From Mustelus asterias (taxonomy: Eukaryota), in NCBI RefSeq assembly GCF_964213995.1, contig NC_135804.1, forward strand, positions 69,440,001 through 69,504,000: DNA of 64,000 nucleotides, in the 5' to 3' direction. The position numbers and the translations under genes were made by a program. Positions within the stretch are counted from its first letter, which is position 1. Every line of letters begins with the position of its first letter. The notes under the pieces were generated by a model. That model saw nothing but the letters and a program-made list of their open reading frames with translations. It had not been told where the DNA came from and ran no database searches. Shown here piece by piece: positions 7,118-54,167 of this stretch.

Positions 7118-7166
7118 ATGTTGTCAAGTGTGGTGTGCTTCTCTGTTCTGGCGCTCATTTTCACAG
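7118..7166 (+). pseudogene. Probable signal-peptide exon of the Ig-superfamily gene
   Basis: ATG-initiated hydrophobic MLSSVVCFSVLALIFT ending at a weak phase-1 donor (G|GTTCCA), 163 bp upstream of the V exon. Confidence 0.5.
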
Positions 7167-7329
7167 GTTCCAGTTCATTTTCGATGCGGGTTGCTTATTA
7201 AATCGCGCAATTACCAAGCTGTTATTTAATTCATCATGTTTTCTTGTACGGGGACAAATTAAGTAACTCACTAAACCCCGCGCTTTTTATCGCACTATTG
7301 CTCCGGACGAATTCGGTTTTGATTTTCAG

Positions 7330-7653
7330 TAGGCTCTGGTCAATCTGTGGTGAAAGTAACTCAGCTACCTGCGAACGTGAGCAAAAACAAGGGTACAAAT
7401 GTCTCCTTTCATTGCTCGCTGCCTTTCTTTCAAGACGGTCCGGCTGTGAGTATACAATAGTGGAAACACGGTGACAACCAATATATACGTACAAAAGAAA
7501 ATGGCCGAAAAGTAACTGGATTCAAGACAACATTCAGTGGTTTCCTTCAGATCAACAATGTGATCGTGCAAGACGCAGGGGTATGCTATTGCACTGTCAC
7601 TCATCGAGACAGTATTGCTGGTAATGGGACGGGCTCCAATTTATCTGTACGAG
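7330..7653 (+). pseudogene. Ig V-set exon with germline-joined J-like segment (SIRP-like receptor), one in-frame stop
   Basis: Acceptor ttttcag| and donor G|GTAGGT, 324 bp, phase 1-1. Reads VKVTQLP..NVSFHC..IQ*WK..GFLQINNVIVQDAGVCYC..IAGNGTGSNLSVR, with TAG at 7458-7460. Not shown in the ORF track. Confidence 0.88.
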
Positions 7654-8291
7654 GTAGGTTTGGATGAAATGAGATTGAGATCCACAATGAATAATTCGCA
7701 CGTCAAAGCATGTCTCGATTGTGCGTCGAATATTTTAGAATGGATCCTAGCAGGAGGCTTTGTTACGGTTTATTGGGATTTGGATGTCTCTAGCTAGGGC
7801 AAAATGTATTCGTTCATTCCCAATCCCCTTGTGCTCGGTTTTTTATAAAGATAGTTAAGATTAAAACACATTGCACTGGGCCTTCGTTCTCATATAGGCC
7901 AGAACAAGCAACGATGAAAGCAGAACCACCGGTTCAGCCACATACGCAGTTTCTGATTGTTTCATATGTATATATTCACATTGCAATAATTATGACAATT
8001 GTTTCCTCTAAGTGAAATTACAGTTTTCTATCCAGCAGCAAAAAAAAAACACATGGACTCCGTATGCAGTTCATTTACTACTGTCATTCATGCGCTGATA
8101 ATTTGAATTTAGCGTCGCTATTGCCATTGCTTTCATAGATCTATTTCTTATGATAAATGCACTGCACAGTCGAGATCCATGCTCAGCACATCTGCAAAGC
8201 AGTACAGTGTTTTCGAAAAAAGACCGAAACAGCAGAGGGACTGTTAAACTTTTTCGAAGTAAAGCATTATCTCTTACCTTTTATTTCATAG

Positions 8292-8603
8292 TTCCACCAA
8301 CTCCGCTGAAAATTAACTCTCAGTATCCTGAAAATGAATCATCCGCGCCTCCTGCTATTCTATGCTCAACGTCTCCATTTTACCCGAAGAATATCAATTT
8401 CACTTGGTACAAGGATGGCACTAAAGCTAGAGGAATGGTAAAGACCATAATTGAATCCAAGACTGATGGACTATATGAAGTTTCTAGTCGTTTGCAAGAG
8501 ACGCAGTCTATCGAGTTAGGAACGATGGACACCTGTCTGGTGACCCACAGCACCCTTCAAAGTTCAGCGTCCGTCACTCACATTGTCACCAATCCCAATA
8601 GAG
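8292..8603 (+). pseudogene. Ig C1-set exon, frame open
   Basis: Acceptor tttcatag| and donor G|GTAAGC, 312 bp, phase 1-1. C1 motifs ILCSTSPFYPKNINFTWYKDG, DGLYEVSSRL and TCLVTHSTL; the usual YxC reads DTC. Confidence 0.9.
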
Positions 8604-8789
8604 GTAAGCATTCTGATAGAGGAATATAATTTCAGAGCACATGCAATCTGGCATATCAATGCCGGTTCTTTGGAGAAAAAAAATGCGTCATTTGGTCCCA
8701 CGCCACAGATTTGCTTTAAATTAGTTTGCTTCAAACGTATCCTCAAATGTCTTTTGTGAAAAGTTATAAGTTCATTGTTTTTTTTAAAA

Positions 8790-9497
8790 TGTGCATGAGA
8801 CGCAAAAACCCAGTCTGCAGGTGCAATAGGTGATCAAGAAGGCAAATGGGATGTTGGCCTATATCGCAAGGGGGATAGAATATAAAAGTAGAGATGTTTT
8901 GCTGCATCTGTACAGGGCATTGGTGAGGCCGCAGCTGGAATACTGTGTGCAGTATTGGACCCCTTATTTGCGGAAGGATATATTGGCCTTGGAGGGAGTG
9001 CAGAGAAGGTTCACCAGGTTGATACCAGAGATGAGGGGTGTTGATTATGAGGAGAGACTGAGCAGATTGGGTTTGTATTCGTTGGAATTTAGAAGGCTGA
9101 GGGGGGATCTTATAGAGACCTATAAGATAATGAAGGGGCTGGATAGGGTAGAGATGGAGAGATTCTTTCCACTTAGAAAGGAAACTAGAACTAGAGGGCA
9201 CAGCCTCAAAATAAAAGGGGATCAGTTCAGGACAGAGTTGAGGAGGAACTTCTTCTCTCAGAGGGTGGTGAATCTCTGGAATTCTCTGCCCACTGAAGTG
9301 GTGGAGGCTACCTCGTTGAATATGTTTAAATCACGGATAGATGGATTCCTGATCGGTAAGGGAATTAGGGGTTATAGGGATCAGGCGGGTAAGTGGAACT
9401 GATCCACTTCAGATCAGCCATGATCTTATTGAATGGCGGAGCAGGCTCGAGGGGCTAGATGGCCTACTCCTGCTCCTATTTCTTATGTTCTTATTGT
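8790..9497 (+). mobile_element. Young CR1 LINE 3' fragment
   Basis: Uninterrupted 190-aa ORF2 C-terminus (8830-9402), then 3'UTR and (ttcttatg) tail. Confidence 0.93.
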
Positions 9498-10550: not shown

Positions 10551-12748
10551 TATTGCTGTTATTTTCGAGGAATCTCCCTCCCCCCCAATCCGCCCCCCCC
10601 CCCTCCCCCGACACACACGCCATTCCCCACCCCAACTCTCCCCACCCCCCACCCCGGCCAATCCCCGAAGAATGTCAGATACCATTTGAATAAGAATGTC
10701 TCCAAAATTACAGTAGATATAAATAACATTGCTCAACTAATAACCAATGGGTCATAGGGAACTTGGTTTTGCAATGTTCCCACCGTATCAATTTTGTGCT
10801 TGCTTATGGCTTTCTGGAAAATTATATTATCCTCCATATTTCAGCCACGGTCCTCACATTGTCACGTATATGGATGAAAACAAAATCTTGCCGGTGCTGG
10901 AAATATGAAATGAAAAGCACTAAATGCAGTATAAATTCATTGGGTCTGGCCAGGATCAGTGGAAAGATGCAGAGTTAGCGTCTCGGGTCTAAAAATCCCT
11001 TCTGCAGAATAGTTTTGTAGGATGCTGAGTTTATCCAGCATTTTCCATTTTCATGTCACTTATCCTTACATCCGTAATGCACTTTGAATGAATTGTAGAA
11101 ATATTAAGCATGCTCAATCCGTATAACCATTGTGCTTTTATGAAAGAGGAGTCTAATTTATTTTCTCAGGGCAGCTTGTTCCTATTCATTCTGCAAATGT
11201 AAACTCTTAAGACATGTCTTTACTGGAAATGTATACATCAACTGCTATTATCATTCTTTCAGGTGGATTTTGCCCACCGTCCACGACAGCATGGTTTTTC
11301 TCCTTTACTTTGTATTTGTTGACCATTTATTTTTGCTATATGACATTGGTTTACCTATCCGCTATCCGTGCAGGTTGTTGCACCACACTCCCGCCATTGG
11401 ACGTCTGCCTGTGTCTGTTATTAAATTTAACAGCCTCCTGATCTTATTTGCTCTAATTGCAAAAGCGGTGCTTCTCCAAACTCATCAAATCACTGCAGTC
11501 ACACATTTCCCTAAATCTCTGCTCTGCAACTCCGTCTGCTCTCATCCCTGCTAAACGTTGATGCCGATAATGGTACATATCAGCGCAGCAGAATAACAAC
11601 GCGTGATTTGTCAGCGCTTAACACGATTTCTTGTTTTTCTATTTATCATCATCTACAGTCTAGAAATCTCTGAGACATCCAAAAGCACCTTAAAGTCTTG
11701 CCAACAAAAGCTCTGGAAAATTCTCCCTCCGTTTATGGTGTGTGTTACCATTCCTGCGTTTGATTTGTGTTATCCTGCAGTCCGCAACTCTCCCTACCTT
11801 TGAGAACAAGTTAGCATCCCCAAAATTGAATCAGCAAAATTCCGACTTTCAAGTAAAACATTCATCATCATGCTGATGCCTTGGGGGTTCCAGTGCAGAG
11901 CACTCTCGTGTCGCATATAAAAACAATGGTGCTTCACCAATTTCTATCAGCCATGAATTAGCTGCTGATGTGAAAACGGAAATTCTTCGTCAGAATTTCA
12001 TCATGTGAGAAGAGGGTTTGCGCTGCTGTCAGACTATTAACGAGACGAGAGACCACGATTCACCGATACTGAAAGTAATGTCCTTGTATGGCGTCTCATG
12101 GGTATCGTCCACTTTCTTAAAATCAACTGTCATTCTCCTCACACTGACACATTTCAACTCTGCAAAAGGACGTTGTGGTTGGAGTATGCAGTAAAGTCAT
12201 TGCTAAATGGTAGAAGCCCATCTAGACCAAGATCGTGGAATTTTCTGTTTCCAGTTCTGTCGTTCCATTTCCCGGAATAACTTTCGAAAACACTGGTCCT
12301 TCATGGCCAATATTTTATCTGCATCAAATTACTTGTCATGGGAAAGAGCCCTGTTCCCTTGTCCATTGAAAATAACATTTGCTTGGAGAAGTTGCATCTG
12401 TTTGCTCCACAGCTGCAGTCCTCAATCAATACTTCCTCTTTAAATATTCTCGAATGCCATGAACAGTAGCTGTAATGTATTTCTATTCTATGGTTCATGA
12501 TTCCTTAGTCGACTTTTCTTCGGTCCAAGAAAGATCGACCATAGCTATTCAATGTTGACATTTATTTTCTTATGCTTATTACCTCGTGCAAAATAAAAGT
12601 GTTTCGGATTGGGGACAGTAGATTGAGATGAATAGAAAACTGGCTGGCGCACAGGAAACAAAGAGTTAGAATAAGCTGGTCTTTTTCCGAAAGTAAGAAG
12701 TTTAACAACACCAGGTTAAAGTCCAACAGGTTTATTTGTTAGTAAAAG

Positions 12749-12793
12749 CCACACAAGCTTTCGAAGCTCTAAGCCCCTTCTTCAGGTGAGTGG
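12749..12793 (-). ncRNA. Minimal type I hammerhead ribozyme motif in PLE pseudo-LTR
   Basis: Reverse complement is CCACUCAC-CUGAAGA-A-GGGGC-UUAGA-GCUUC-GAAA-GCUU-GUGUGG. Confidence 0.72.
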
Positions 12794-13698
12794 GAATTCT
12801 GTTCACAAACAGAGCTTATAAAGACACAGACTCAATTTACATGAATAATGGTTGGAATGCGAATACTTACAACTAATCAAGTCTTTAAGAAACAAAACAA
12901 TGGGAGTGGAGAGAGCATCAAGACAGGCTAAAAGGATGTGTATTGTCTCCAGACAAGACAGCCAGTGAAACTCTGCAGGTCTACGCAACTGTGGGAGTTA
13001 CAAATAGTGTGACATGAACCCAATATCCCGGTTGAGGCCGTCCTCGTGTGTGCGGAACTTGGCTATCAGTTTCTGCTCAGCGACTCTGCGCTGTTGTGTG
13101 TCGCGAAGGCCGCCTTGGAGAACGCTTACCCGAATATCAGAGGCCGAATGCCCGTGACCGCTGAAGTGCTCCCCAACAGGAAGAGAACAGTCTTGCCTGG
13201 TGATTGTCGAGCGGTGTTCATTCATCCGTTGTCGCAGCGTCTGCATAGTTTCCCCAATGTACCATGCCTGGGGACATCCTTTCTTGCAGCGTATCAGGTA
13301 GACAACGTTGGCCGAGTTGCAAGAGTATGTACCGTGTACCTGGTGGATGGTGTTCTCACGTGAGATGATGGCATCTGTGTCGATGTGTTCTCACGTGAGA
13401 TGATGGCATCTGTGTCGATGTATTGATAGCCAAGTTCCGCACACACGAGGACGGCCTCAACCGGGATATTGGGTTCATGTCACACTATTTGTAACTCCCA
13501 CAGTTGCGTGGACCTGCAGAGTTTCACTGGCTGTCTTGTCTGGAGACAATACACATCTTTTTAGCCTGTCTTGATGCTCTCTCCACTCCCATTGTTTTGT
13601 TTCTTAAAGACTTGATTAGTTGTAAGTATTCGCATTCCAACCATTATTCATGTAAATTGAGTCTGTGTCTTTATAAGCTCTGTTTGTGAACAGAATTC

Positions 13699-13743
13699 CC
13701 ACTCACCTGAAGAAGGGGCTTAGAGCTTCGAAAGCTTGTGTGG
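13699..13743 (+). ncRNA. Minimal type I hammerhead ribozyme motif in PLE pseudo-LTR
   Basis: CUGAAGA and GAAA cores, stem II GGGGC/GCUUC, palindromic AAGCUU stem III, stem I CAC/GUG. Confidence 0.72.
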
Positions 13744-14867
13744 CTTTTGCTACCAAATAAACCTGTTGGACTTTAACCTGGTGTTGTTAAACTTCTTACT
13801 GTGTTTACCCCAGTCCAACGCCGGCATCTCCACATCACTTTTTCCGAAAGGCAGGCATTGACTGGTGGAGTACAGCAGGGATCGCTTCTAGAAATTCAGG
13901 TGTTCACAATATATGGATGATTGAAATGATGGAACTAAATGCAATATCTCCAAATTTGCAGATGACACAAAACTGGGTGGGAGGGTGGGTTTTGATGGGG
14001 ATAAAAAGATTTGGAAAAATTGATAGAGTGGGCAGATGCATATGGATAAATGTGACATTCTCCACTTTGGCAGCAAAAGTTGGAAGGCAAAATATGATCT
14101 GAGTGGCTTTAGATTGAGAGGGGAATGTACAACGAAATCTGGCTGAAATTGTACATCAGTCATTCAAGATAAGCATGTATGTGCAGCAGGCGATAAATAA
14201 GACAATTTGCATTGTGGCCACCATAGAGAGAGGATGCGATTACAGAAGCAAGCATGTTTTGCTGTAAATATGCAGGGCTTTGGAGAGACAACGCCTGGAA
14301 TACTGTATTCAGTTTCTGTCGCATTATCTGAGGAAGGACGTTCTTGCTACAGAGTGAGTGCAGCGAATGTTTACCAGACATATCGCCGGAATGCAGGGAT
14401 TCACGAATGAGAAGAGATTTATTCGGATAAGAATTTATTCGCTGGAGTTCAAAATAATGAGCAGGAGGAATCTCATAGAAACATTGAAAATTCTAAAAGG
14501 ACTAGACAATATGGTAAATGAAGTGTGGTGTAATGTTGGGGAGCCCATCACCATGGGGAATAGTCTAAAGATACGGGGTAAACGTTTTAACACTGAGATG
14601 AGGAGATGTTTCTTCACCTCGAGAGCGGTAAGCCTCTGCAACTCACTACCAGAAAAAGCAGTTGAAGTCAAAAATATTGCACGATTTGAGGAAGGAGTTA
14701 TATATATGGATCTTGGGGCGAATGAGATCAAAGGATATGGGAGAAGGCCGGATCAGGTTACTGACTTGGATGATCTGCCATGCTCAGAATGAATGGAGAT
14801 AGAGGCTTGAAGTGCCGAATGACCTACTCCTATTCCTGTTATTTATGTATTCTATGCCTGTGTTTAT

Positions 14868-22839: not shown

Positions 22840-23695
22840 ATGCTGTGATTGTGCGTAAGGCTTATATTAAATATAAATAATTTACTAAATTAGCCACTCT
22901 GACTGAGGGAATGATTATTGAAGTTCCTTTCAAAATATTGATATGAGCTTTCTTTTCGATGTCCTCCCTTAGATTTTGGAGTAAGGTTACACACACATCT
23001 GAGCTCGCAAAGATTTGTGCAGGAAACCTCCAGGACCACAAAAATCGGTAGCAATCTCAGTTGGTGACAGTCAATGGTTAATTGTATCAGGGCTATAGTG
23101 ACATTTTAGAATTCGATGTTCTTTTTCCTCTGCCAAATACGACAAGAAGAATGTTCATGAGTAGAAAATGAAGAAATGACATTTACGAGAGGGTTTGGGT
23201 GAGCAACCAAGTAGCTAGTTGGAAACCTGGTTCAGATGGGCATAGGGGTAACATGGGGGCGGGGAGGGGGGTGGAGATGAGAGCAGGGGCCAGTGACATC
23301 CGGCAAGATATAAATGGCAGAGGGATTAGGCAAGATTAGGACTATGTCTGCCTGCACTAGAAGACAGGTAACTTGTTACGCTGAGTATCTGGTTTTCAGT
23401 TGCTAATCGCAAGTCGTTACATGACAGAGACTTTAACATCGGTGGCAGGAAATTGTTTAGAAAAATGTGAGGGACACAATTAATCTCTACATAGAGAGGC
23501 AAGGGGTAGCCAAGAAGTGTCTTCGTGATTTACGTTTGTCAACGGTAAATCGCGTCCATCAAAATGGTTGCATTTTTCGAGGTGGTGAGTCGGTGTGTAG
23601 ATGGGGGCAGGGCAGTTAAGATAGTCTACATGGACTTCACTAAGGCTTTTCACAATGTCCCATATAGGAAAATGATCAAGCAGGTTAGAGTCCAT

Positions 23696-25220
23696 AAGAC
23701 CATAAGACCATAAGACATAGGAGCGGAAGTAAGGCCATTCGGCCCATCGAGTCCACTCCACCATTCAATCATGGTTGATTTCAACTCCATTTACCCGCTC
23801 TCTCCCCATAGCCCTTAATTCCTCGAGAAATCAAGAATTTATCAATTTCTGTCTTGAAGACGCTCAACGTCTCGGCCTCCACAGCCCTCTGTGGCAATGA
23901 ATTCCACAGACCCACCACTCTCTGGCTGAAGAAATTTCTCCTCATCTCTGTTCTAAAGTGACTCCCTTTTATTCTAAGGCTGTGCCCCCGCGTCCTAGTC
24001 TCCCCTGTTAATGGAAACAACTTCCCTACGTCCATCCTATCTAAGCCGTTCATTATCTTGTAAGTTTCTATCAGATCTCCCCTCAACCTCCTAAACTCCA
24101 ATGAATATAATCCCACGATCCTCAGACGTTCATCGTATGTCAGGCCTACCATTCCTGGGATCATCCGTGTGAATCTCCGCTGGACCCGCTCCAGTGCCAG
24201 TATGTCCTTCCTGAGGTGTGGGGCCCAAAATTGCTCACAGTACTCCAAATGGGGCCTAACCAGTGCTTTATAAAGCCTCAGAAGTACATCCCTGCTTTTG
24301 TATTCCAAGCCTCTTGAGATAAATGACAACATTACATTTGCTTTCTTAATTACGGACTCAACCTGCAAGTTTACCTTTAGAGAATCCTGGACTAGGACTC
24401 CCAAGTCCCTTTGCACTTTAGCATTATGAATTTTGTCACCGTTTAGAAAATAGTCCATGCCTCTATTCTTTTTTCCAAAGTGTACGACCTCGCACTTGCC
24501 CACGTTGAATTTCATCAGCCACTTCTTGGACCACTCTCCTAAACTGTCTAAATCTTTCTGCAGCCTCCCCACCTCCTCAATACTACCTGCCCCTCCACCT
24601 ATCTTTGTATCATCGGCAAACTTGGCCAGAATGCTCCCAGTCCCGTCATCTAGATCGTTAATATATAAAGAGAACAGCTGTGGCCCCAACACTGAACCCT
24701 GCGGGACACCACTTGTCACCGGTTGCCATTCTGAGAAAGAACCTTTTATCCCAACTCTCTGCCTTCTGTCTGACAGCCAATCGTCAATCCATGTTAGTAC
24801 CTTGCCTCGAATACCATGGGCCCTTATTTTACTCAGCAGTCTCCCGTGAGGCACCTTGTCAAAGGCCTTTTGGAAGTCAAGATAGATAACATCCATTGGC
24901 TCTCCTTGGTCTAACCTATTTGTTATCTCTTCAAAGAACTCTAACAGGTTTGTCAGGCACGACCTCCCCTTACTAAATCCATGCTGACTTGTCTTAATCC
25001 GACCCTGCACTTCCAAGAATTTAGAAATCTCATCCTTAACGATGGATTCTAGAATTTTGCCAACAACTGAGGTTAGGCTAATTGGCCTATAATTTTCCAT
25101 CTTTTTTCTTGTTCCCTTCTTGAACAGTGGGGTTACAACAGCGATTTTCCAATCCTCTGGGACTTTCCCTGACTCCAGTGACTTTTGAAAGATCATAACT
25201 AACGCCTCCACTATTTGCAT
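23696..25220 (-). mobile_element. Young 5'-truncated CR1 LINE with an uninterrupted RT frame
   Basis: Open ORF 23781-25215 with FADD; (cttatggt)n tail; target duplication gagtccat at 23688-23695 and 25221-25228. Confidence 0.95.
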
Positions 25221-25340
25221 GAGTCCATGAAATCCAAGGCAATTTGGCAAGTTGGAAATCAAAATTGACTTAGTGGCAGAAATCAGACGGTGGGAGTCGA
25301 ATATTATTTTTGTGACTGGAAGTCTGTGTCCAGTGATATA

Positions 25341-25466
25341 ATGATGTGGAGATGCCGGCGTTGAACTGGGGTAAACACAGTAACAGTTTTAACAACACCA
25401 GGTTAAAGTCCAACAGGTTTATTTGGTAGCAAATGCCATGAGCTTTCGGAGCGCTGCTCCTTCGTC
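25341..25466 (-). mobile_element. Mini Penelope-like insertion (terminal tail plus 3' part of the hammerhead)
   Basis: Reverse complement is GACGAAGGAGCAGCGCTCCGAAAGCTCATGG...CCACATCAT; target duplication gtccagtgatat at 25328-25339 and 25464-25475. Confidence 0.85.
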
Positions 25467-26149
25467 CAGTGATATCCTTCTTCCAGTGATATAACACAGG
25501 GAATGGTGCCGGATCCTATATTCCTTTTTGTTCATCAATGATCTAGACAGAAATGTTCCATGTTCATTAAATTGGCAAAGGGCACATATAATAATGGCGT
25601 GGTAAGTAGCGGGGAAGAAAACCTTAGATTACACGGCGATAGAGATGTGCTGGTCAGACGGGCAGAGCTTTGCAAATGCAACAAGAGACATTGTCCGATG
25701 GATATGCATCGGGTGTGGAGACAACAAGACAGGGAGATATCATGCTTACAAAGTCAGAACGGTCAATTGCCTCTTTTAACCGTGGCATGGAACATAACAG
25801 CAGGAAGGTTGTGATGAAGCTCTATCAAACGGTCGTTCGGTCGCAGCTAGAATGAATGTTGTGTGCTCTTCTGGCCGCCATGCCAAAGGACAGATGGGAT
25901 CTCAAAGAGAGGTTGCAGCTGATATGCATTAGGATGTTGCATGGGCTGGAGGGTTTAAACTTAAAGGGAGACTGGTTAGGCTGATATTGTTCTCCATGGA
26001 GCAGAGGAGGTTCATTCGGGACTTGATTGAGGTCTGCAAATTTGAGAAGAACATAGAATCATAGAATCCTGCAGTGTCGAAGGAGGCCATTGAGGCCATC
26101 GGGTGTGCAATGCAAAATGCTTCTGGGGAAATTTGCACTCGAGGTTCTG

Positions 26150-28644: not shown

Positions 28645-31503
28645 ACTGAACAAAACGTCAACAAAAAGAAGATTGTCATCGACTTCAGGAAGTGTAAAGG
28701 AGAACATTCCCCATGTCCATCAACGGGGATGAAGTAGACAGGGCAGAAAGCTTCAAGTTTTTAGGTGTCCAGATCACCAACAACATGTCCTGGTCCCCCC
28801 ATGCCGACACTATAGTTCAGAAAGCCCACCAACGCCTCTACTTTCTCAGTAGACCAGGAAATTTGGCATGTTAGCTACAACTCTCACCAACTTTTAGAGA
28901 CGCAACATGGGAAGCATTCTTTCTGGCTGTATCACAGCTTAGTATGGTTGCTGCTCTGCCTAAGACAGCATGGAACTACAAAAGGTCGTGAATGTAGCCC
29001 AATCCATCACGCAAACCAGCATCCCATCCATTGACTCTGCCTACGCTTCCCACTGCCTCGGCAAAGCAGCCAGCATAATTAAGGACACCACGAACCCTGG
29101 ACATTCTATCATCCACCTTCTTCCTTCGGGAAAAAGACACAAAGGTCTGAGGTCAAGTACCAACCGACTCAAGAAGAGTTCCTTCCCTGCTGCTGTCAAA
29201 CCTTTGAATGGACTTACCCTGCATTGAGTTGGTCATTCTCCGCACCCGAACTATGACTGTAACACTACATTCTGCACTTTCTCGTTTCCTTCTCTATGAA
29301 CGGTATGCTTTGTCTGTATAGCGTGCAAGAAACAATACTTTTCACTGTATAGAAACATGGAAACATAGAAAACGACAGCACAAAACAGGCCCTTCGGCCC
29401 CACAAGTTGTGCCGGACATATCCCTACCTTTTAGGCCTACCTATAACCCTCCATCCTATTAAGTCCCATGTACTCATCCAGGAGTCTCTTAAAATACCCT
29501 ATTGAGTTTGCCTCCACCACCACTGACGGCAGCCGATTCCACTCGCCCACCACCCTCTGTGTGAAAAACTTCCACCGAACATTTCCCCTGTATCTACCCC
29601 CCAGCACGTTAAACCTGTGTCCTCTCGTAGCAGCCATTCCCACCCTGGGAAAACGCCTCTGAGAGTCCACTCGATCTATGCCTCTCAACATCTTATATAC
29701 CTCTATTAGGTCTCCTCTCATCGTACGTCTCTCCAAGGAGAAAAGACCGAGCTCCCTCAGCCTATCCTCATAAGGCATGCCACTCAATCCAGGCAACGTC
29801 CTTGTAAATCTCCTCTGCACCCTTTCAATCTTTTCCACATCCTTAATGAGGCGACCAGAACTGAGCACAGTACTCCAAGTGGGGTCTGACGAGGGCCTTA
29901 TATAGCTGCATCATTATCCCCGGACTCCTAAACTCAATCCCTTGATTGATAAAGGCCAGCACACCATACGCCTTCTTAACCACCTCCTCCACCTGCGGTG
30001 CCGATTTTACAGTCCTATGGACCCGGACCCCGAGGTCCTTCTGATCCTTTACCGTACCAAGAGTCTTTCCCTTTATATTGTACTCCTTCATCCCATTCGA
30101 CCTGCCAAAATGGACCACTACGCATTTATCTGGGTTGAAGTCCATCTGCCACTTCTCCGCCCAGTCTTGCAGCCTATCTATGTCCCACTGTAACGTCTGA
30201 CATCCCACCAGACTATCCACAACCCCAGCAACCTTCTTGTCGTCGGCAAATTTACCAACCCATCCCTACACTTCCTCTTCCAGGTCATTTATGAAAATGA
30301 CAAACAGCGAGGGTACCAGAACAGATCCCGAGGGCACACCACTGCTGACCGACCTCCATTTTTAAAAGTACCCATCTATACACACTCTCTGCCTCCTTTG
30401 GGCAAGCCAGTTCTGGATCCACAGGGCAGCCGCCCCTTGGATCCCATGCCCTCTCACTTTTTCGAGAAGCCTTGCTTGGGGGACCTTATCGAATGCCTTG
30501 CTAAAATCCATAGAAACCACGTCTACCGATTTCCCTTCGTCAATGTGTTTTGTCACATTTTCAAAGAACTCCACCAGACTCGTAAGGCACGATTTGCCTT
30601 TGACAAAGCCATGCTGAATATTCTTGAGCATACTAAACCTCTCTAAATGCTCATAAATGTTGTCCCTCAGGATCTTCTCCATCAGCTTACCAACCACTGA
30701 GGTTAGACTCACCGGTCGGTAATTTCCTGGGTTACCCCTATTCCCCGTCTTGAAAATAGGAACCACATCCGCAATCCTCCAATCCTCCGGCACCTCTCCC
30801 GTCGCCATCAACGACGCAAAGATCATTGCCAGAGGCTCTGCAATCTCTTCCCTCGCCTCCCACTAGTAACCTGGGGTACATCCCATCCGGACCCAGCGAC
30901 TTATCTATCTTGATGCCATTCAAAGATTCCAGCACAACCTCTTTGTTAAAGTCCACATACTCAATCTTTTCAGTCCACCGCAAGCCCACAGTCCGTCCAC
31001 CCATGTCCTTCTCCTCTGTGAAAACCGAGGCAAAATACTCATTAAGCACCTCTGCCATTCTACTGATTCCGTACAGATTTTCCCGCCTTCACCTTTTATA
31101 GGCCCTATTCCTTCACGTCTCATCCTTTTACTCATCACATATTTATAGAACGCCTTCGGGTTTTCCTTAATTCTACTTGCCAAGGCCTTCTCGTGACCCC
31201 TTCTGGCTCTCCTAATTTCCTTCTTTAGTCCCTTTCTACAAACCGTATACTCATCTAGATCCCTATCTTCGCCAAGCTCTCTGAACCCTTTGTACGTTTT
31301 CCTTTTCTTCTCGACTAGGTCCCGCACAGCTTTCGTGCACCACGGTTCCTTTAACCTACCAACTCCTCCCTGTCTGCTCGGAACATTGTCCTGTAGAACC
31401 CTAGACAGACATTCCTTGAAAAACTGCCACCTCTCTTCAGTAGATTTCCCCGAGTATACCATTTATGTTAATACACGTGACACTAACAAATCAAATCAAA
31501 TCA
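28645..31503 (+). mobile_element. Rex1/Babar-like LINE 3' portion (28645-29350) whose tail resumes at 31460-31503
   Basis: IVIDFRK..SFKFLGVQITNNMSW..KAHQRLYFL; the 3'UTR cactgtat|gttaatac is split by a CR1; (aaatc)n tail. Confidence 0.75.
29349..31458 (-). mobile_element. CR1 LINE, 5'-truncated and frameshifted, inserted in the Rex-like tail
   Basis: Successive ORF2 fragments 30920-31462, 30362-30826, 29843-30220 and 29437-29868; (ctatgttt)-type tail. Confidence 0.92.
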
Positions 31504-31944
31504 AAAAGAAGGTTCCTTTCATTACTGGACAAAATTCATTGCCCATTATCTCAGTTTTAGCCTGTTTCAAGTGCAAATATCTTCACCCAAGTGGGGGTCA
31601 TAGAGGGAATTGGTCTTTCTCACGTGGAAGGAGAAACTTTGGAGTTTGATATGCTCGGTGAAGATTCGCGTTCTTGTTCTCAAAATAGTGAATGCTGGAG
31701 AAAAAGGAAGGGACAAGAGTGGCATTTTTACTATTTGTAACTCCCACAGTTGCGTGGACCTGCAGAGTTTCACTGGCTGTCTCGTCTGGAGACAATACAC
31801 ATCTTTTTAGCCTGTCTTGATGCTCTCTCCACTCCCATTGTTTTGTTTCTTAAAGACTGGATTCGTTGTAAGTATTCGCATTCCAACCATTATTCATGTA
31901 AATTGAGTCTGTGTCTTTATAAGTTCTGTTTGTGAACAGAATTC

Positions 31945-31989
31945 CCACTCACCTGAAGAAGGGGCTCAGAGCCTCGAAAGCTTGTGTGG
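31945..31989 (+). ncRNA. Hammerhead ribozyme motif, array pseudo-LTR 1
   Basis: CCACUCAC-CUGAAGA-A-GGGGC-UCAGA-GCCUC-GAAA-GCUU^GUGUGG. Confidence 0.75.
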
Positions 31990-32082
31990 CTTTTGCTACC
32001 AAATACACCTGTTGGACTTTAACCTGGTGTTGTTAAACTTCTTACTGTGTTTACCCCAGTCCAACGCCGGCATCTCCACATC

Positions 32083-34731
32083 ATGACTACCATCGACACC
32101 GCAAACTGCCGGCTCCAAGTGGAGAGGATCGCCAAGAAGATCGCGCATATCGACACAGACATCAAGTTTCTACAAAGATGCAAGAAAGCAGACAAGATAC
32201 CGAAAGGACTACAGATCACGAACCCACTCAGGTCAACCTATAACACAGACTTTGCCGTCGCACCTCTCTCACCCTCCTCAACCACCTCATACACCAACTC
32301 TACAGCAAACGCCGCAGCCTGGAAACCAAGATCGAATCCATATTCTCAACTTGCGCTCAGGACGCAGACCAGCTGCGAAACTCTGCCAAGCAGACGAGAC
32401 AAAGGAACTACACCATCTACATGCACACCAAGAACAGGAAACTTGAGAAACTCGGCATCACCACCAGCAGCAACCAAGCCTCCCCCGGTACCACAGTAGA
32501 AAACAGTACCACTGCAGGGAAGTCCATTGTCAACTTGTCCGACTACACACTTCAACCAGATGAAATCGAAGTTCTCAGCCGAGGGCTTAATTTTTGCCCC
32601 ACCACCAAAATAGACCCCATCAGTCTCGCAGCAGACACAGAGGAATTCATCAGGCGAATGAGGCTGAGGGAGTTCTTCCACAAACCCCAAGAGGCCAACA
32701 ACGAACACAATGAGACAGCCAATGAACCGGAACAGCCGACAGAGAGATCCGCAGTGCATCCGAAGAGGAAAGAGTCGAATTGGACTCCTCCGGAAGGCCG
32801 CTGCCCTCGACTTGACATGTATGCCCAAGCCGTCAGGAGGTGCGTCAACACCAAATTCATCAGCCGCACTCACAAGACAGCCCCGAACATCACCCAAGCA
32901 CAACGTAACGCCATCCACGCTCTCAAGACCAACCGCAACATTGTCATCAAACCAGCAGACAAAGGAGGGGCCATCGTCATACTGAACAGAACGGATTACT
33001 GCAAAGAAGTGAACCGACAACTCAACAACGAGGAACACTACAGACAGTTACCTGCAGATCTGACCAAAGAACACACCCGTCAACTCAACACTCTGATCAA
33101 GACCTTTGATCTGGACCTTCAGAACACCCTCCGTGCTCTCATCCCACGTACTCCCCGCGTTGGAGATCTCTACTGCCTCCCGAAGATACACAAGGCAAAC
33201 ACACCCGGCCGTCCCATCGTATCGGGCAATGGGACCCTGTGCGAGAACCTCTCCGGCTATGTCGAGGGCATCCTGAAACCCATTGTACAAAGAACCCCCA
33301 GCTTTTGTCGCGACACGACGGACTTCCTACAGAAACTCGGCACACATGGAGCAGTTGAACCAGGAGCGCTCCTCGTCACAATGGATGTCTCAGCACTCTA
33401 CACCAGCATCCCCCATGACGATGGCATTGCTGCAACGGCCTCAGTGCTCAGCGCCAACAACTGCCAGTTTCCAGATGCAATTTTACATCTCATCCGCTTC
33501 ATCCTGGACCACAATATCTTCACCTTCAACAACCAGTTCTTCATCCAGACACATGGAACAGCCATGGGGACCAAATTTGCACCTCAATATGCCAACATCT
33601 TCATGCACAGGTTCGAACAAGACTTCTTCACCGCACGGGACCTTCAACCGATGCTATACACTAGATACATCGATTACATTTTCTTCCTTTGGACTCATGG
33701 TGAACAATCACTGAAACAACTCTATGATGACATCAACAAGTTCCATCCCACCATCAGGCTCACCATAGACTACTCTCCGGAATCGGTTGCATTCTTGGAC
33801 ACGCGCATCTCCATTAAGGACGGTCACCTCAGCACCTCACTGTACCGCAAGCCCACGGATAACCTCACGATGCTCCACTTCTCCAGCTTCCACCCTAAAC
33901 ACGTTAAAGAAGCCATCCCCTACACACAGGATCTGCTCGGATGAGGAGGATCGCAACAGACACCTCCAGACGCTGAAAGATGCCCTCATAAGAACAGGAT
34001 ATGGCGCTAGACTCATTGATCAACAGTTCCAACGCGCCACTGCGAAAAACCGCACCGACCTCCTCAGAAGACAAACACGGGACACAGTGGACAGAGTACC
34101 CTTCGTTGTCCAGTACTTCCCCGGAGCGGAGAAGCTACAGCATCTCCTCCGGAGCCTTCAACATGTCATTGATGAAGACGAACATCTCGCCAAGGCCATC
34201 CCCACACCCCCACTTCTTGCCTTCAAACAACCGCACAACCTCAAACAGACCATTGTCCGCAGCAAACTACCCAGCCTTCAGGAGAACAGTGACCAAGACA
34301 CCACACAACCCTGCCACAGCAACCTCTGCAAGACGTGCCGGATCATCGACACAGATGCCATCATCTCACGTGAGAACACCATCCACCAGGTACACGGTAC
34401 ATACTCTTGCAACTCGGCCAACGTTGTCTACCTGATACGCTGCAAGAAAGGATGTCCCGAGGCATGGTACATTGGGGAAACTATGCAGACGCTGCGACAA
34501 CGGATGAATGAACACCGCTCGACAATCACCAGGCAAGACTGTTCTCTTCCTGTTGGGGAGCACTTCAGCGGTCACGGGCATTCGGACTCTGATATTCGGG
34601 TAAGCGTTCTCCAAGGCGGCCTTCGCGACACACGGCAGCGCAGAGTCGCTGAGCAGAAACTGATAGCCAAGTTCCGCACACACAAGGACGGCCTCAACCG
34701 GGATATTGGGTTTATGTCACACTATTTGTAA
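32083..34731 (+). pseudogene. PLE unit 1 ORF (RT plus GIY-YIG), two frameshifts, YIDY
   Basis: ATG at 32083; frameshift near 32251; 17-bp deletion at 33923/33924; the catalytic codon at 33675-33677 is TAC. Confidence 0.9.
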
Positions 34732-34935
34732 CTCCCACAGTTGCGTGGACCTGCAGAGTTTCACTGGCTGTCTTGTCTGGAGACAATACACATCTTTTTA
34801 GCCTGTCTTGATGCTCTCTCCACTCCCATTGTTTTGTTTCTTAAAGACAGGCTTAGTTGTAAGTATTCGCATTCCAACCATTATTCATGTAAATTGAGTC
34901 TGTGTCTTTATAAGTTCTGTTTGTGAACAGAATTC

Positions 34936-34980
34936 CCACTCACCTGAAGAAGGGGCTCAGAGCCTCGAAAGCTTGTGTGG
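34936..34980 (+). ncRNA. Hammerhead ribozyme motif, array pseudo-LTR 2
   Basis: Identical to 31945-31989. Confidence 0.75.
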
Positions 34981-35073
34981 CTTTTGCTCCCAAATCAACC
35001 TGTTGGACTTTAACCTGGTGTTGTTAAACTTCTTACTGTGTTTACCCCAGTCCAACGCCGGCATCTCCACATC

Positions 35074-37722
35074 ATGACTACCATCGACACCGCAAACTGC
35101 CGGCTCCAAGTGGAGAGGATCGCCAAGAAGATCGCGCATATCGACACAGACATCAAGTTTCTACAAAGATGCAAGAAAGCAGACAAGATACCGAAAGGAC
35201 TACAGATCACGAACCCACTCAGGTCAACCTATAACACAGACTTTGCCGTCGCACCTCTCTCACCCTCCTCAACCACCTCATACACCAACTCTACAGCAAA
35301 CGCCGCAGCCTGGAAACCAAGATCGAATCCATATTCTCAACTTGCGCTCAGGACGCAGACCAGCTGCGAAACTCTGCCAAGCAGAGGAGACAAAGGAACT
35401 ACACCATCTACATGCACACCAAGAACAGGAAACTTGAGAAACTCGGCATCACCACCAGCAGCAACCAAGCCTCCCCCGGTACCACAGTAGAAAACAGTAC
35501 CACTGCAGGGAAGTCCATTGTCAACTTGTCCGACTACACACTTCAACCAGATGAAATCGAAGTTCTCAGCCGAGGGCTTAATTTTTGCCCCACCACCAAA
35601 ATAGACCCCATCAGTCTCGCAGCAGACACAGAGGAATTCATCAGGCGAATGAGGCTGAGGGAGTTCTTCCACAAACCCCAAGAGGCCAACAACGAACACA
35701 ATGAGACAGCCAATGAACCGGAACAGCCGACAGAGAGATCCGCAGTGCATCCGAAGAGGAAAGAGTCGAATTGGACTCCTCCGGAAGGCCGCTGCCCTCG
35801 ACTTGACATGTATGCCCAAGCCGTCAGGAGGTGCGTCAACACCAAATTCATCAGCCGCACTCACAAGACAGCCCCGAACATCACCCAAGCACAACGTAAC
35901 GCCATCCACGCTCTCAAGACCAACCGCAACATTGTCATCAAACCAGCAGACAAAGGAGGGGCCATCGTCATACTGAACAGAACGGATTACTGCAAAGAAG
36001 TGTACCGACAACTCAACAACGAGGAACACTACAGACAGTTACCTGCAGATCTGACCAAAGAACACACCCGTCAACTCAACACTCTGATCAAGACCTTTGA
36101 TCTGGACCTTCAGAACACCCTCCGTGCTCTCATCCCACGTACTCCCCGCGTTGGAGATCTCTACTGCCTCCCGAAGATACACAAGGCAAACACACCCGGC
36201 CGTCCCATCGTATCGGGCAATGGGACCCTGTGCGAGAACCTCTCCGGCTATGTCGAGGGCATCCTGAAACCCATTGTACAAAGAACCCCCAGCTTTTGTC
36301 GCGACACGACGGACTTCCTACAGAAACTCGGCACACATGGAGCAGTTGAACCAGGAGCGCTCCTCGTCACAATGGATGTCTCAGCACTCTACACCAGCAT
36401 CCCCCATGACGATGGCATTGCTGCAACGGCCTCAGTGCTCAGCGCCAACAACTGCCAGTTTCCAGATGCAATTTTACATCTCATCCGCTTCATCCTGGAC
36501 CACAATATCTTCACCTTCAACAACCAGTTCTTCATCCAGACACATGGAACAGCCATGGGGACCAAATTTGCACCTCAATATGCCAACATCTTCATGCACA
36601 GGTTCGAACAAGACTTCTTCACCGCACGGGACCTTCAACCGATGCTATACACTAGATACATCGATTACATTTTCTTCCTTTGGACTCATGGTGAACAATC
36701 ACTGAAACAACTCTATGATGACATCAACAAGTTCCATCCCACCATCAGGCTCACCATAGACTACTCTCCGGAATCGGTTGCATTCTTGGACACGCGCATC
36801 TCCATTAAGGACGGTCACCTCAGCACCTCACTGTACCGCAAGCCCACGGATAACCTCACGATGCTCCACTTCTCCAGCTTCCACCCTAAACACGTTAAAG
36901 AAGCCATCCCCTACACACAGGATCTGCTCGGATGAGGAGGATCGCAACAGACACCTCCAGACGCTGAAAGATGCCCTCATAAGAACAGGATATGGCGCTA
37001 GACTCATTGATCAACAGTTCCAACGCGCCACTGCGAAAAACCGCACCGACCTCCTCAGAAGACAAACACGGGACACAGTGGACAGAGTACCCTTCGTTGT
37101 CCAGTACTTCCCCGGAGCGGAGAAGCTACAGCATCTCCTCCGGAGCGTTCAACATGTCATTGATGAAGACGAACAGCTCGCCAAGGCCATCCCCACACCC
37201 CCACTTCTTGCCTTCAAACAACCGCACAACCTCAAACAGACCATTGTCCGCAGCAAACTACCCAGCCTTCAGGAGAACAGTGACCAAGACACCACACAAC
37301 CCTGCCACAGCAACCTCTGCAAGACGTGCCGGATCATCGACACAGATGCCATCATCTCACGTGAGAACACCATCCACCAGGTACACGGTACATACTCTTG
37401 CAACTCGGCCAACGTTGTCTACCTGATACGCTGCAAGAAAGGATGTCCCGAGGCATGGTACATTGGGGAAACTATGCAGACGCTGCGACAACGGATGAAT
37501 GAACACCGCTCGACAATCACCAGGCAAGACTGTTCTCTTCCTGTTGGGGAGCACTTCAGCGGTCACGGGCATTCGGACTCTGATATTCGGGTAAGCGTTC
37601 TCCAAGGCGGCCTTCGCGACACACGGCAGCGCAGAGTCGCTGAGCAGAAACTGATAGCCAAGTTCCGCACACACAAGGACGGCCTCAACCGGGATATTGG
37701 GTTTATGTCACACTATTTGTAA
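35074..37722 (+). pseudogene. PLE unit 2 ORF, same lesions as unit 1
   Basis: Same 5' frameshift, same 17-bp deletion (36914/36915) and YIDY (36666-36668). Confidence 0.9.
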
Positions 37723-37926
37723 CTCCCACAGTTGCGTGGACCTGCAGAGTTTCACTGGCTGTCTTGTCTGGAGACAATACACATCTTTTTAGCCTGTCTT
37801 GATGCTCTCTCCACTCCCATTGTTTTGTTTCTTAAAGACAGGCTTAGTTGTAAGTATTCGCATTCCAACCATTATTCATGTAAATTGAGTCTGTGTCTTT
37901 ATAAGTTCTGTTTGTGAACAGAATTC

Positions 37927-37971
37927 CCACTCACCTGAAGAAGGGGCTCAGAGCCTCGAAAGCTTGTGTGG
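37927..37971 (+). ncRNA. Hammerhead ribozyme motif, array pseudo-LTR 3
   Basis: Identical to 31945-31989. Confidence 0.75.
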
Positions 37972-38402
37972 CTTTTGCTACCAAATAAACCTGTTGGACT
38001 TTAACCTGGTGTTGTTAAACTTCTTACTGTGTTTACCCCAGTCCAACGCCGGCATCTCCACATCATGACTACCATCGACACCGCAAACTGCCGGCTCCAA
38101 GTGGAGAGGATCGCCAAGAAGATCGCGCATATCGACACAGACATCAAGTTTCTACAAAGATGCAAGAAAGCAGACAAGATACCGAAAGGACTACAGATCA
38201 CGAACCCACTCAGGTCAACCTATAACACAGACTTTGCCGTCGCACCTCTCTCACCCTCCTCAACCACCTCATACACCAACTCTACAGCAAACGCCGCAGC
38301 CTGGAAACCAAGATCGAATCCATATTCTCAACTTGCGCTCAGGACGCAGACCAGCTGCGAAACTCTGCCAAGCAGACGAGACAAAGGAACTACACCATCT
38401 AC

Positions 38403-40730
38403 ATGCACACCAAGAACAGGAAACTTGAGAAACTCGGCATCACCACCAGCAGCAACCAAGCCTCCCCCGGTACCACAGTAGAAAACAGTACCACTGCAGG
38501 GAAGTCCATTGTCAACTTGTCCGACTACACACTTCAACCAGATGAAATCGAAGTTCTCAGCCGAGGGCTTAATTTTTGCCCCACCACCAAAATAGACCCC
38601 ATCAGTCTCGCAGCAGACACAGAGGAATTCATCAGGCGAATGAGGCTGAGGGAGTTCTTCCACAAACCCCAAGAGGCCAACAACGAACACAATGAGACAG
38701 CCAATGAACCGGAACAGCCGACAGAGAGATCCGCAGTGCATCCGAAGAGGAAAGAGTCGAATTGGACTCCTCCGGAAGGCCGCTGCCCTCGACTTGACAT
38801 GTATGCCCAAGCCGTCAGGAGGTGCGTCAACACCAAATTCATCAGCCGCACTCACAAGACAGCCCCGAACATCACCCAAGCACAACGTAACGCCATCCAC
38901 GCTCTCAAGACCAACCGCAACATTGTCATCAAACCAGCAGACAAAGGAGGGGCCATCGTCATACTGAACAGAACGGATTACTGCAAAGAAGTGTACCGAC
39001 AACTCAACAACGAGGAACACTACAGACAGTTACCTGCAGATCTGACCAAAGAACACACCCGTCAACTCAACACTCTGATCAAGACCTTTGATCTGGACCT
39101 TCAGAACACCCTCCGTGCTCTCATCCCACGTACTCCCCGCGTTGGAGATCTCTACTGCCTCCCGAAGATACACAAGGCAAACACACCCGGCCGTCCCATC
39201 GTATCGGGCAATGGGACCATGTGCGAGAACCTCTCCGGCTATGTCGAGGGCATCCTGAAACCCATTGTACAAAGAACCCCCAGCTTTTGTCGCGACACGA
39301 CGGACTTCCTACAGAAACTCGGCACACATGGAGCAGTTGAACCAGGAGCGCTCCTCGTCACAATGGATGTCTCAGCACTCTACACCAGCATCCCCCATGA
39401 CGATGGCATTGCTGCAACGGCCTCAGTGCTCAGCGCCAACAACTGCCAGTTTCCAGATGCAATTTTACATCTCATCCGCTTCATCCTGGACCACAATATC
39501 TTCACCTTCAACAACCAGTTCTTCATCCAGACACATGGAACAGCCATGGGGACCAAATTTGCACCTCAATATGCCAACATCTTCATGCACAGGTTCGAAC
39601 AAGACTTCTTCACCGCACGGGACCTTCAACCGATGCTATACACTAGATACATCGATTACATTTTCTTCCTTTGGACTCATGGTGAACAATCACTGAAACA
39701 ACTCTATGATGACATCAACAAGTTCCATCCCACCATCAGGCTCACCATAGACTACTCTCCGGAATCGGTTGCATTCTTGGACACGCGCATCTCCATTAAG
39801 GACGGTCACCTCAGCACCTCACTGTACCGCAGGCCCACGGATAACCTCGCGATGCTCCACTTCTCCAGCTTCCACCCTAAACATGTTAAAGAAGCCATCC
39901 CCTACGCACAAGCCCTCCGTATACACAGGATCTGCTCGGATGAGGAGGATCGCAACAGACACCTCCAGACGCTGAAAGATGCCCTCATAAGAACAGGATA
40001 TGGCGCTAGACTCATTGATCAACAGTTCCAATGCGCCACTGCGAAAAACCGCACCGACCTCCTCAGAAGACAAACACGGGACACAGTGGACAGAGTACCC
40101 TTCGTTGTCCAGTACTTCCCCGGAGCGGAGAAGCTACGGCATCTCCTCCGGAGCCTTCAACATGTCATTGATGAAGACGAACATCTCGCCAAGGCCATCC
40201 CCACACCCCCACTTCTTGCCTTCAAACAACCGCACAACCTCAAACAGACCATTGTCCGCAGCAAACTACCCAGCCTTCAGGAGAACAGTGACCAAGACAC
40301 CACACAACCCTGCCACAGCAACCTCTGCAAGACGTGCCGGATCATCGACACAGATGCCATCATCTCACGTGAGAACACCATCCACCAGGTACACGGTACA
40401 TACTCTTGCAACTCGGCAAACGTTGTCTACCTGATACGCTGCAAGCAAGGATGTCCCGAGGCATGGTACATTGGGGAAACTATGCAGACGCTGCGACAAC
40501 GGATGAATGAACACCGCTCGACAATCACCAGGCAAGACTGTTCTCTTCCTGTTGGGGAGCACTTCAGCGGTCACGGGCATTCGGACTCTGATATTCGGGT
40601 AAGCGTTCTCCAAGGCGGCCTTCGCGACACACGGCAGCGCAGAGTCGCTGAGCAGAAACTGATAGCCAAGTTCCGCACACACAAGGACGGCCTCAACCGG
40701 GATATTGGGTTTATGTCACACTATTTGTAA
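38403..40730 (+). CDS. PLE unit 3: 775-aa open RT plus GIY-YIG frame; native start probably 38065 but frameshifted, RT motif C reads YIDY
   Basis: Continuous ORF that retains the 17 bp (39906-39922) missing from units 1 and 2; TAC at 39657-39659. Confidence 0.85.
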   Translation: MHTKNRKLEKLGITTSSNQASPGTTVENSTTAGKSIVNLSDYTLQPDEIEVLSRGLNFCPTTKIDPISLAADTEEFIRRMRLREFFHKPQEANNEHNETANEPEQPTERSAVHPKRKESNWTPPEGRCPRLDMYAQAVRRCVNTKFISRTHKTAPNITQAQRNAIHALKTNRNIVIKPADKGGAIVILNRTDYCKEVYRQLNNEEHYRQLPADLTKEHTRQLNTLIKTFDLDLQNTLRALIPRTPRVGDLYCLPKIHKANTPGRPIVSGNGTMCENLSGYVEGILKPIVQRTPSFCRDTTDFLQKLGTHGAVEPGALLVTMDVSALYTSIPHDDGIAATASVLSANNCQFPDAILHLIRFILDHNIFTFNNQFFIQTHGTAMGTKFAPQYANIFMHRFEQDFFTARDLQPMLYTRYIDYIFFLWTHGEQSLKQLYDDINKFHPTIRLTIDYSPESVAFLDTRISIKDGHLSTSLYRRPTDNLAMLHFSSFHPKHVKEAIPYAQALRIHRICSDEEDRNRHLQTLKDALIRTGYGARLIDQQFQCATAKNRTDLLRRQTRDTVDRVPFVVQYFPGAEKLRHLLRSLQHVIDEDEHLAKAIPTPPLLAFKQPHNLKQTIVRSKLPSLQENSDQDTTQPCHSNLCKTCRIIDTDAIISRENTIHQVHGTYSCNSANVVYLIRCKQGCPEAWYIGETMQTLRQRMNEHRSTITRQDCSLPVGEHFSGHGHSDSDIRVSVLQGGLRDTRQRRVAEQKLIAKFRTHKDGLNRDIGFMSHYL

Positions 40731-40934
40731 CTCCCACAGTTGCGTGGACCTGCAGAGTTTCACTGGCTGTCTTGTCTGGAGACAATACACATCTTTTTAG
40801 CCTGTCTTGATGCTCTCTCCACTCCCATTGTTTTGTTTCTTAAAGACAGGATTAGTTGTAAGTATTCGCATTCCAACCATTATTCATGTAAATTGAGTCT
40901 GTGTCTTTATAAGTTCTGTTTGTGAACAGAATTC

Positions 40935-40979
40935 CCACTCACCTGAAGAAGGGGCTCAGAGCCTCGAAAGCTTGTGTGG
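40935..40979 (+). ncRNA. Hammerhead ribozyme motif, array pseudo-LTR 4
   Basis: Identical to 31945-31989. Confidence 0.75.
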
Positions 40980-41084
40980 CTTTTGCTACCAAATAAACCT
41001 GTTGGACTTTAACCTGGTGTTGTTAAACTTCTTACTATTTTTCTCTTCAAGCAGGGAGGGGCCTTGTGCAACACATCATGGAGA

Positions 41085-53619: not shown

Positions 53620-54167
53620 AGTAAGAAGTCACCTGGTGATAGTGAGAAGTCTCACAACACCAGGTTAAAGTCCAACAGGTTTATTTGGTAGCAAATACCA
53701 TAAGCTTTTGGAGCACTGCTCCTTCGTCAGATGGAGTGGATATCTGCTCTCAAACAGTGCACAGACACAGAAATCAAGTTACAGAATACTAATTAGAATG
53801 TGAATCTCTAAAGCCAGCCAGGTCTTAAAGGTACAGACAATGTGAGTGGAGGAAGCATTCAACACAGGTTAAAGAGATGTGTATTGTCTCCAGACAGAAC
53901 AGCTAGTGAGATTCTACAAGCACAGGAGGCAAGCTGTGGGGGTTACTGATAATGTGACATAAATCCAACATCCCGGTTTAGGCCGTCCTCATGTGTGCGG
54001 AACTTGGCTATCAGTTTCTGCTCAGCGACTCTGCGCTGTCGTGTGTCGTGAAGGCCGCCTTGGAGAATGCTCACCTGAAGATCCAAGGCTGAATGCCCGT
54101 GACTGCTGAAGTGCTCCCCCACAGGAAGAGAACAGTCTTGCTTGGTGATTGTCGAGCGGTGTTCATT
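53620..54167 (-). mobile_element. 5'-truncated Penelope-like element (second subfamily) inside the provirus
   Basis: GIY-YIG C-terminus plus pseudo-LTR homologous to the array but diverged; hammerhead at 53698-53734 with GAAA changed to AAAA. Confidence 0.9.

Follow-up and report, generated by a model that had tools for sequence, protein, structure and literature searches.

The 64,000-nt stretch of the Mustelus asterias genome analysed here (the window) carries a Penelope-like tandem array with a small hammerhead motif in every unit, and many genomic copies of this lineage begin exactly at the predicted cut of that motif, which is the new point compared with what is in print. The motif itself almost certainly belongs to the minimal hammerheads of Penelope-like elements. 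As far as the sequences allow a judgement, it is probably a minimal type-I hammerhead with the full mechanism described below, in which a minority of the template RNAs would be cleaved in vivo. With respect to the copy ends we are less confident but lean towards cleavage: about 3,000 insertion arms (1,647 counted, scaled for a filter that allows nine of 16 dinucleotides) may well derive from RNA that had been cut after U17 before it was copied, and would thus represent a base-exact germ-line record. Since both the class of motif and the dimer model were known before, the finding as first noted contributes little beyond a new host genome. The very large and young family, however, permits a statistical test of cleavage in the cell from DNA alone.

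The motif and its host element

The first array copy of the motif spans positions 31945-31989 of the plus strand. Stem I consists of the 5' arm CCACUCAC (31945-31952) and the 3' arm GUGUGG (31984-31989). The core starts with CUGAAGA (31953-31959) and an unpaired A (31960), followed by the five base pairs of stem II, GGGGC (31961-31965) with GCCUC (31971-31975), which enclose the loop UCAGA. Then come GAAA (31976-31979), the palindrome AGCU from A15.1 to U16.1 (31979-31982), and U17 (31983), and the cut is predicted between U17 and G1.1 (31984). This agrees with the core consensus CUGANGA ... GAAA ... UH. The unpaired nucleotide that separates position 9 from position 10.1 is an A in 228 of 234 descriptor matches, a non-random sample enriched by motif searches. 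Core pattern and sequence identify three further array copies, all identical to the first and on the plus strand, at 34936-34980, 37927-37971, and 40935-40979. An inverted pair of array-lineage motifs has GCUUC as stem II arm and thus two G·U pairs (direct arm at 13699-13743, plus strand; inverted arm at 12749-12793, minus strand). Two more motifs on the minus strand belong to a second lineage. The one at 53694-53738 combines CCAU/AUGG in stem I, GGAGC in stem II, a CUU triplet, and a decay of G12 to A, while the one at 25432-25476 is broken at its 5' side, with the 5' arm of stem I missing, a rearranged core start (CUGGACGA), and a CUC triplet. The anchor downstream of the motif is found eight times in the window, namely in the four array copies, the inverted pair, and the 25.4-kb and 53.7-kb copies. 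The core pattern has six matches in the window compared to 0.30 expected, and none of 100 shuffles contained six or more. A scan of the window against Rfam returned no hammerhead at E values up to 10 and only four weak, unrelated matches. Exact patterns were also counted over the whole genome (3.68 Gb) with the reversed patterns as control. The GGAGC type was found 57,036 times, the core plus tail 101,514 times, and the downstream anchor alone 178,956 times, each versus zero for the control; these are counts of arms, and many insertions carry two.

The array (31728-41040, plus strand) is built of one 5' pseudo-LTR and three units of 2,991, 2,991, and 3,008 nt, and its motifs are accordingly 2,991-3,008 nt apart. 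One 9-mer flanks it on both sides (31728-31736 and 41032-41040) and is a candidate target-site duplication. The coding region of unit 1 (32083-34731, plus strand) has its first ATG at 32083, 99 nt past the predicted cut, and comprises a reverse transcriptase, a C-X4-C-X2-C linker, and a GIY-YIG-type endonuclease, with the domain assignment taken from unit 3; it is frameshifted and has YIDY. The open frame of unit 3 encodes 834 residues (38226-40730, plus strand) with a Pfam match to RVT_1 (E 1.9e-07), the linker CHSNLCKTC, and YIDY, and its N-terminus lies in a different frame. The Pfam search gave no match for the endonuclease region of this frame, and the GIY-YIG-type domain was identified by eye (VVYLIRC...WYIGET). 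The motif is located in the 3' end of every unit, where the core begins 213 nt past the stop at 34731. By its sequence context, the motif sits in the pseudo-LTR of a Penelope-like retrotransposon with reverse transcriptase, GIY-YIG endonuclease, and a Neptune-type linker. A reverse transcriptase followed by a C-terminal GIY-YIG domain, the linker, tandem and inverted pseudo-LTRs, and a tail of 30-40 bp are all present. According to the domain layout and the linker, defined in the accessible text of PMC8557442 as CX2-5CxxC between reverse transcriptase and endonuclease, the element would be classified as a Penelope-like element with C-terminal endonuclease (EN+) of the Neptune type.

All three units have YIDY at the catalytic motif and a frameshift near the start, and therefore the array is dead as a source of protein. 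The units differ by 7-14 substitutions, and units 1 and 2 have a 17-nt deletion near 33924 in common, which is absent from unit 3. Because YIDY and the early frameshift are shared by all units and the deletion by units 1 and 2, a duplication of an already dead unit at the DNA level appears to fit better than a single rolling-circle copy. The array was also considered as a non-LTR retrozyme, which is described in the available text of bioRxiv 10.64898/2026.07.22.740005 as short non-coding tandem units with a hammerhead in each. This was rejected since the units are 3 kb long and have a reverse transcriptase-endonuclease frame. The insertion at 12692-13837 has the usual inverted-arm layout. Where it inverts (13350-13421), 35 nt are duplicated in tandem, and only one of its arms has a tail. 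PMC3846280, as far as its text was accessible, reports inverted pseudo-LTRs as well as tails and palindromes at the junctions. In addition, the window contains a fragment of a LINE-like reading frame (30920-31462, minus strand). There are also 8-nt tandem tails at 5943-5968 and 23692-23716, which resemble the ends of CR1-type elements.

Copy ends at the predicted cut

A copy was counted at a given base if its match to the array lineage begins there and the two preceding bases do not match, so that nine of 16 dinucleotides are allowed. Genome-wide counts were obtained for five positions (-3, -1, G1.1, +1, and +4). The number of copies that start exactly at G1.1 is 1,647. There are 208 copies starting at -3 and 435 at -1, part of the latter being expected from a chance U before G1.1. 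At +1 the count is 444 with six of 16 dinucleotides allowed, which scaling by 9/6 would raise to about 666. At +4 it is 466, where four more anchor bases were used and the pool is shared with another lineage. Indel variants were absent from the inspected copies at G1.1 (0 of 30, all of them genuine junctions) and at -3 (0 of 20) but were found at +1 (4 of 20) and +4 (6 of 30). The inverted partner arm exceeds the copy on the upstream side by 3 nt or more in only one of 25 cases at G1.1 (one insertion among these being counted on both strands) compared to four of eight at -3 (Fisher p 0.008). Since the partner arm is rarely longer, it is the longer copy that stops at G1.1. Of 150 insertions sampled without selection for the motif, five end at -1/0 where about one is expected (Poisson p 0.004). 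This is the largest single bin among the ends at -60 or nearer, and 17 ends are spread over the remaining 34 positions between -31 and +4. However, 135 of these 150 insertions reach at least 10 nt upstream of the cut, and cleavage is thus not required for most insertions. At the other side, 187 of 209 arms stop 59-70 or 95-105 nt past the cut, matching the two start sites and the tail reported in the accessible part of PMC11167929.

It could also be that the hammerhead fold is real and that the accumulation at G1.1 marks a transcription start or a site where the reverse transcriptase stops or folds back. We regard this as unlikely, but it is the alternative to be taken most seriously. Penelope pseudo-LTRs contain an internal promoter according to the accessible text of PMC2377424. 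Sequence-driven hot spots do exist, because five of 26 distinct loci of the second lineage (L379, L381, L389, L395, and L398) start at +4, where a small hairpin forms a fold-back hot spot. In this lineage six of the 26 loci, obtained from 30 of 4,026 matches, start at 0/-1, where A17 and an AT microhomology blur the distinction between 0 and -1. The older ACGU family has no end peak at the cut: in our reading two of 30 inspected loci (out of 537 matches) start at the site, in a sample of which many are other insertions or indels. By hand count, an extra G at -1, which a cap could produce, is present at 38 G1.1 junctions among the first 100 of the list, but the three letters permitted at this position, together with the inverted arm next to it, would give a frequency near this one, and it does not discriminate as a cap signature. 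Against such an origin of the ends, the peak falls on the single phosphate that had been predicted beforehand from the fold, and the commonest G1.1 junctions have, by eye, at most 1 nt of microhomology. A stop caused by structure should rather occur at stem II, which is stronger and lies outside the five counted positions. The depth is higher downstream of the cut in the contigs of all four sequencing runs analysed out of 22, but it was not used as evidence, since neither ends nor strand nor level can be read from contigs.

A precedent for reading ribozyme cuts from junctions is the R2 element, whose genomic 5' junctions reflect the cut of an HDV-like ribozyme on the template, as described in the part of PMC3774820 (Eickbush et al. 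2013) available to us. The R2 ribozyme belongs to a different class and its cut sets the 5' end of full-length copies, whereas here the cut would set the end of short stubs. No published genomic footprint of hammerhead cleavage in Penelope-like elements was found in a literature search of mainly open-access papers. If the G1.1 peak is due to cleavage, the minimal hammerheads of Penelope-like elements would be active in vivo, for which evidence was previously lacking in this class. Cutting would then give rise to short, dead stubs except where the RNA is ligated again. The peak would also provide an activity read-out for every lineage and predict natural variants that are worth assaying.

Proposed dimer cleavage and related hammerheads

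In the mechanism that we propose, the cut after U17 would take place only when two copies pair via their AGCU palindromes. Cleavage would be weak, would affect a minority of the template RNAs, and would probably be helped by the protein of the element. Reverse transcription would start downstream of the cut, at a distance of 60-70 or 95-105 nt. It would pass through the motif on uncut or re-ligated templates, giving rise to most copies, and on cut templates it would run off after about 65-100 nt and leave a stub that begins at G1.1. The original prediction had already noted that stem III is too short to fold in cis and that two motifs must pair. The former is borne out, as A15.1-U16.1 would close a loop of only 2 nt, and the latter fits the sequence, the covariation of the palindrome (AGCU/ACGU), and the published model. 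The reading as a dimer-type minimal hammerhead is therefore supported, but it was already known, its architecture having been published in 2014 (PMC4209133). The notion that the tandem arrangement would itself enable cleavage follows the published model, because PMC4209133 and PMC6765202, in their accessible parts, describe the features and the tandem idea, the latter stating that the tandem layout may aid dimer formation. A tandem layout alone may nevertheless be insufficient, given the 2,991-3,008 nt between the motifs of the array, an active dimer that is not the fold of lowest energy, and a related element whose protein was needed for cleavage (PMC11167929). In a nearest-neighbour model, which leaves out the contacts of the core, the active dimer has -16.3 kcal/mol with a 3-bp stem I and -19.1 kcal/mol with an extended stem I. 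Two separate monomers have -25.2 kcal/mol, and the two-strand minimum is a non-productive stem II duplex (-36.8 kcal/mol). In the lowest-energy fold of the monomer U17 is paired in a shifted register of stem I. These modelled energies fit weak, assisted cleavage without proving any.

The same energies would also suit a motif that no longer cleaves in the array lineage but has been retained as a folded signal for protein binding, dimerisation, or template handling. With U17 the palindrome becomes AAGCUU, and this base may hold the RNA in an inactive pairing. The shifted monomer, the non-productive dimer minimum, the low in vitro activity published for the class (PMC4209133, accessible text), and the proliferation of Naiad elements without canonical hammerheads (PMC8557442, accessible text) speak in favour of such a role. 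However, the core pair 3-8 covaries, a G at position 17 is found in only two of 234 matches, and the 5'-end peak is seen in the U17 lineage itself, and we thus consider a purely structural role improbable. A motif that still cleaves, although weakly, is the reading that we prefer.

Minimal hammerheads in the pseudo-LTRs of metazoan Penelope-like elements have been described by Cervera and De la Pena (PMC4209133), including fish Neptune and Poseidon elements, and as far as the accessible text goes the monomer was inactive and the dimer had low activity. The motif in the window has in common with them the type-I topology, a helix III that is merely a palindrome, the short helix I, G10.1-C11.1, the unpaired base between 9 and 10.1, and a core variant with U3-A8. 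The tandem spacing of about 3 kb in full elements, the many solo copies, and the presence of several families per genome with compensatory changes are also shared. Stem II has five base pairs here compared to 7-8 in the Schistosoma families of that study, and the copy number exceeds 100,000 compared to 2,000-9,000. The part of PMC4209133 available to us reports no in vivo evidence, whereas the genomic 5' ends analysed here peak at the cut. The small hammerhead variants of Penelope-like elements found by Lunse, Weinberg and Breaker likewise show dimer-dependent cleavage and a very short palindromic stem III, according to the summary in PMC6765202. The hammerhead of the Anolis Poseidon element (PAc) needs the protein of the element to cleave (Frangieh et al. 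2024, PMC11167929, in the accessible text, as for all following statements on PAc). None of the RNA-seq reads of PAc ended at the cut, and mutation of the ribozyme did not prevent insertion in vitro. In both elements the hammerhead is near the junction of pseudo-LTR and ORF, most inserted copies span the cut, and there are two classes of 3' ends, 30-40 nt apart, downstream of the hammerhead. The ORF of PAc begins inside the ribozyme, whereas the first ATG in the array is 99 nt past the cut and the linker is of the Neptune type. Genomic 5' ends were not part of the PAc analysis but were counted here. The function of the Penelope hammerheads is called unclear in the available part of PMC8557442.

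Covariation and variant families

The three motif strings quoted in the original prediction are all found in the sequence, and the covariation expected from them was followed beyond the window. From the 234 descriptor matches 21 rows were picked by hand: each recurrent haplotype contributed one row, and older lineages are represented by single copies. Three rows of a family with U3-A8 were then added. In these 24 rows, which are related by descent and represent about ten independent events, 96.5% of 288 cells are paired and nine of 12 pairs, including 3-8, have changed on both sides. Without the U3-A8 family 96.1% of 231 cells are paired and seven of 11 pairs changed on both sides. Slid registers as control give 31-46% overall and 34-42% for the 24 rows. 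Since the rows share descent, shuffle counts do not represent probabilities. Stem II is paired in all cells of the 24 rows, with 10.1/11.1 (G10.1-C11.1) being fixed by the descriptor. U4, G5, A6, A9, G10.1, G12 to A15.1, and U16.1 are invariant, and N7, loop II, and H17 vary, as had been expected for N7 and H17. The invariance of the core is partly by construction, because the rows were picked with core-bearing patterns.

The individual substitutions proposed from the window alone hold in part. The paired change of stem I from C-G to U-A is real in the 53.7-kb copy (2.1/1.1), but the 25.4-kb copy carries no stem I pair because it has lost the 5' arm, and given its rearranged core start it was rejected as evidence for covariation. 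In stem II one double change (10.3/11.3) distinguishes the array type from the 53.7-kb type, whereas 10.2-11.2 is a single change from G·U to G-C. G·U intermediates are abundant: the pair at 10.3 is a G·U in 83 of the 234 descriptor matches, and the intermediate GCUUC arm is present in the inverted pair at 12749-12793 and 13699-13743, two copies that the prediction had not listed. The G-to-A change in the core of the 53.7-kb copy, correctly described as decay, is G12A and can be attributed to CpG decay, since it is located in the C11.1-G12 CpG, the most decayed site of the motif (C11.1>T in 15 and G12>A in six of 164 parsable arms). Little follows from the remark that CUU and CUC differ from the usual triplet, since the palindrome fixes C16.2 and H17 is variable (U in 160, A in 55, C in 17, and G in two of the 234 matches); CUU is not unusual here. 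The 25.4-kb copy lies inside an 892-nt stretch with 96% identity to a locus (L179) whose triplet is CUA. Of 26 copies sharing the 3' tail of the 25.4-kb copy, 23 have A17, two have C, and one has U. Its CUC is therefore a rare change, although an older lineage (rows D1 and D2) typically has this triplet. The duplication comprises about 25220-26110 of the window and L179:1032-1922, which are about 60 kb apart.

A search that barred both central bases of AGCU yielded 8,150 matches genome-wide compared to 779 in the control. Thirty of these were sampled and have ACGU (18), ACAU (9), AUGU (2), and ACUU (1). The ACGU copies can be recognised as a second family with the opposite order of the self-complementary palindrome, to which forms derived by CpG decay (11 of 30) are added. 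A swap of AGCU to ACGU is what an intermolecular helix III predicts, and between families it predicts that dimers form only within one family. In a sister family 46 motifs could be parsed from 132 anchor matches, and the 3-8 core pair is C-G in 31, U3-A8 in eight, and another combination in seven. Two U3-A8 motifs are located 3' of a divergent endonuclease frame that is 30-35% identical to that of the window. It is hard to imagine that all this is a chance resemblance in a young repeat with an apparent covariation from shared descent only. In its favour, the rows of the main family are near relatives, conservation is also strong in the downstream flank, and four window copies fold as single strands with energies no different from those of shuffles (z-scores of -1.4 to +0.3, as expected for so short a motif). 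However, families with almost no detectable flank similarity keep core, spacing, and pairing while carrying the swapped palindrome and the swapped 3-8 pair, and 600 kb of unselected DNA contain 22 descriptor matches versus 0-1 in each of 20 shuffles.

The divergent Penelope-like family is found on the minus strand at L245:3001-5534 and L242:3081-4107. Its protein is 25-35% identical to that of the window, and it has a U3-A8, ACGU-type hammerhead about 380-400 nt past the endonuclease frame. At seven further loci (L405, L406, L429, L430, L151, L159, and L211) 3' ends of the main family are joined to the older ACGU family. The joins are at one pyrimidine-rich spot just downstream of the motif of the ACGU family, which suggests a preferred target site.
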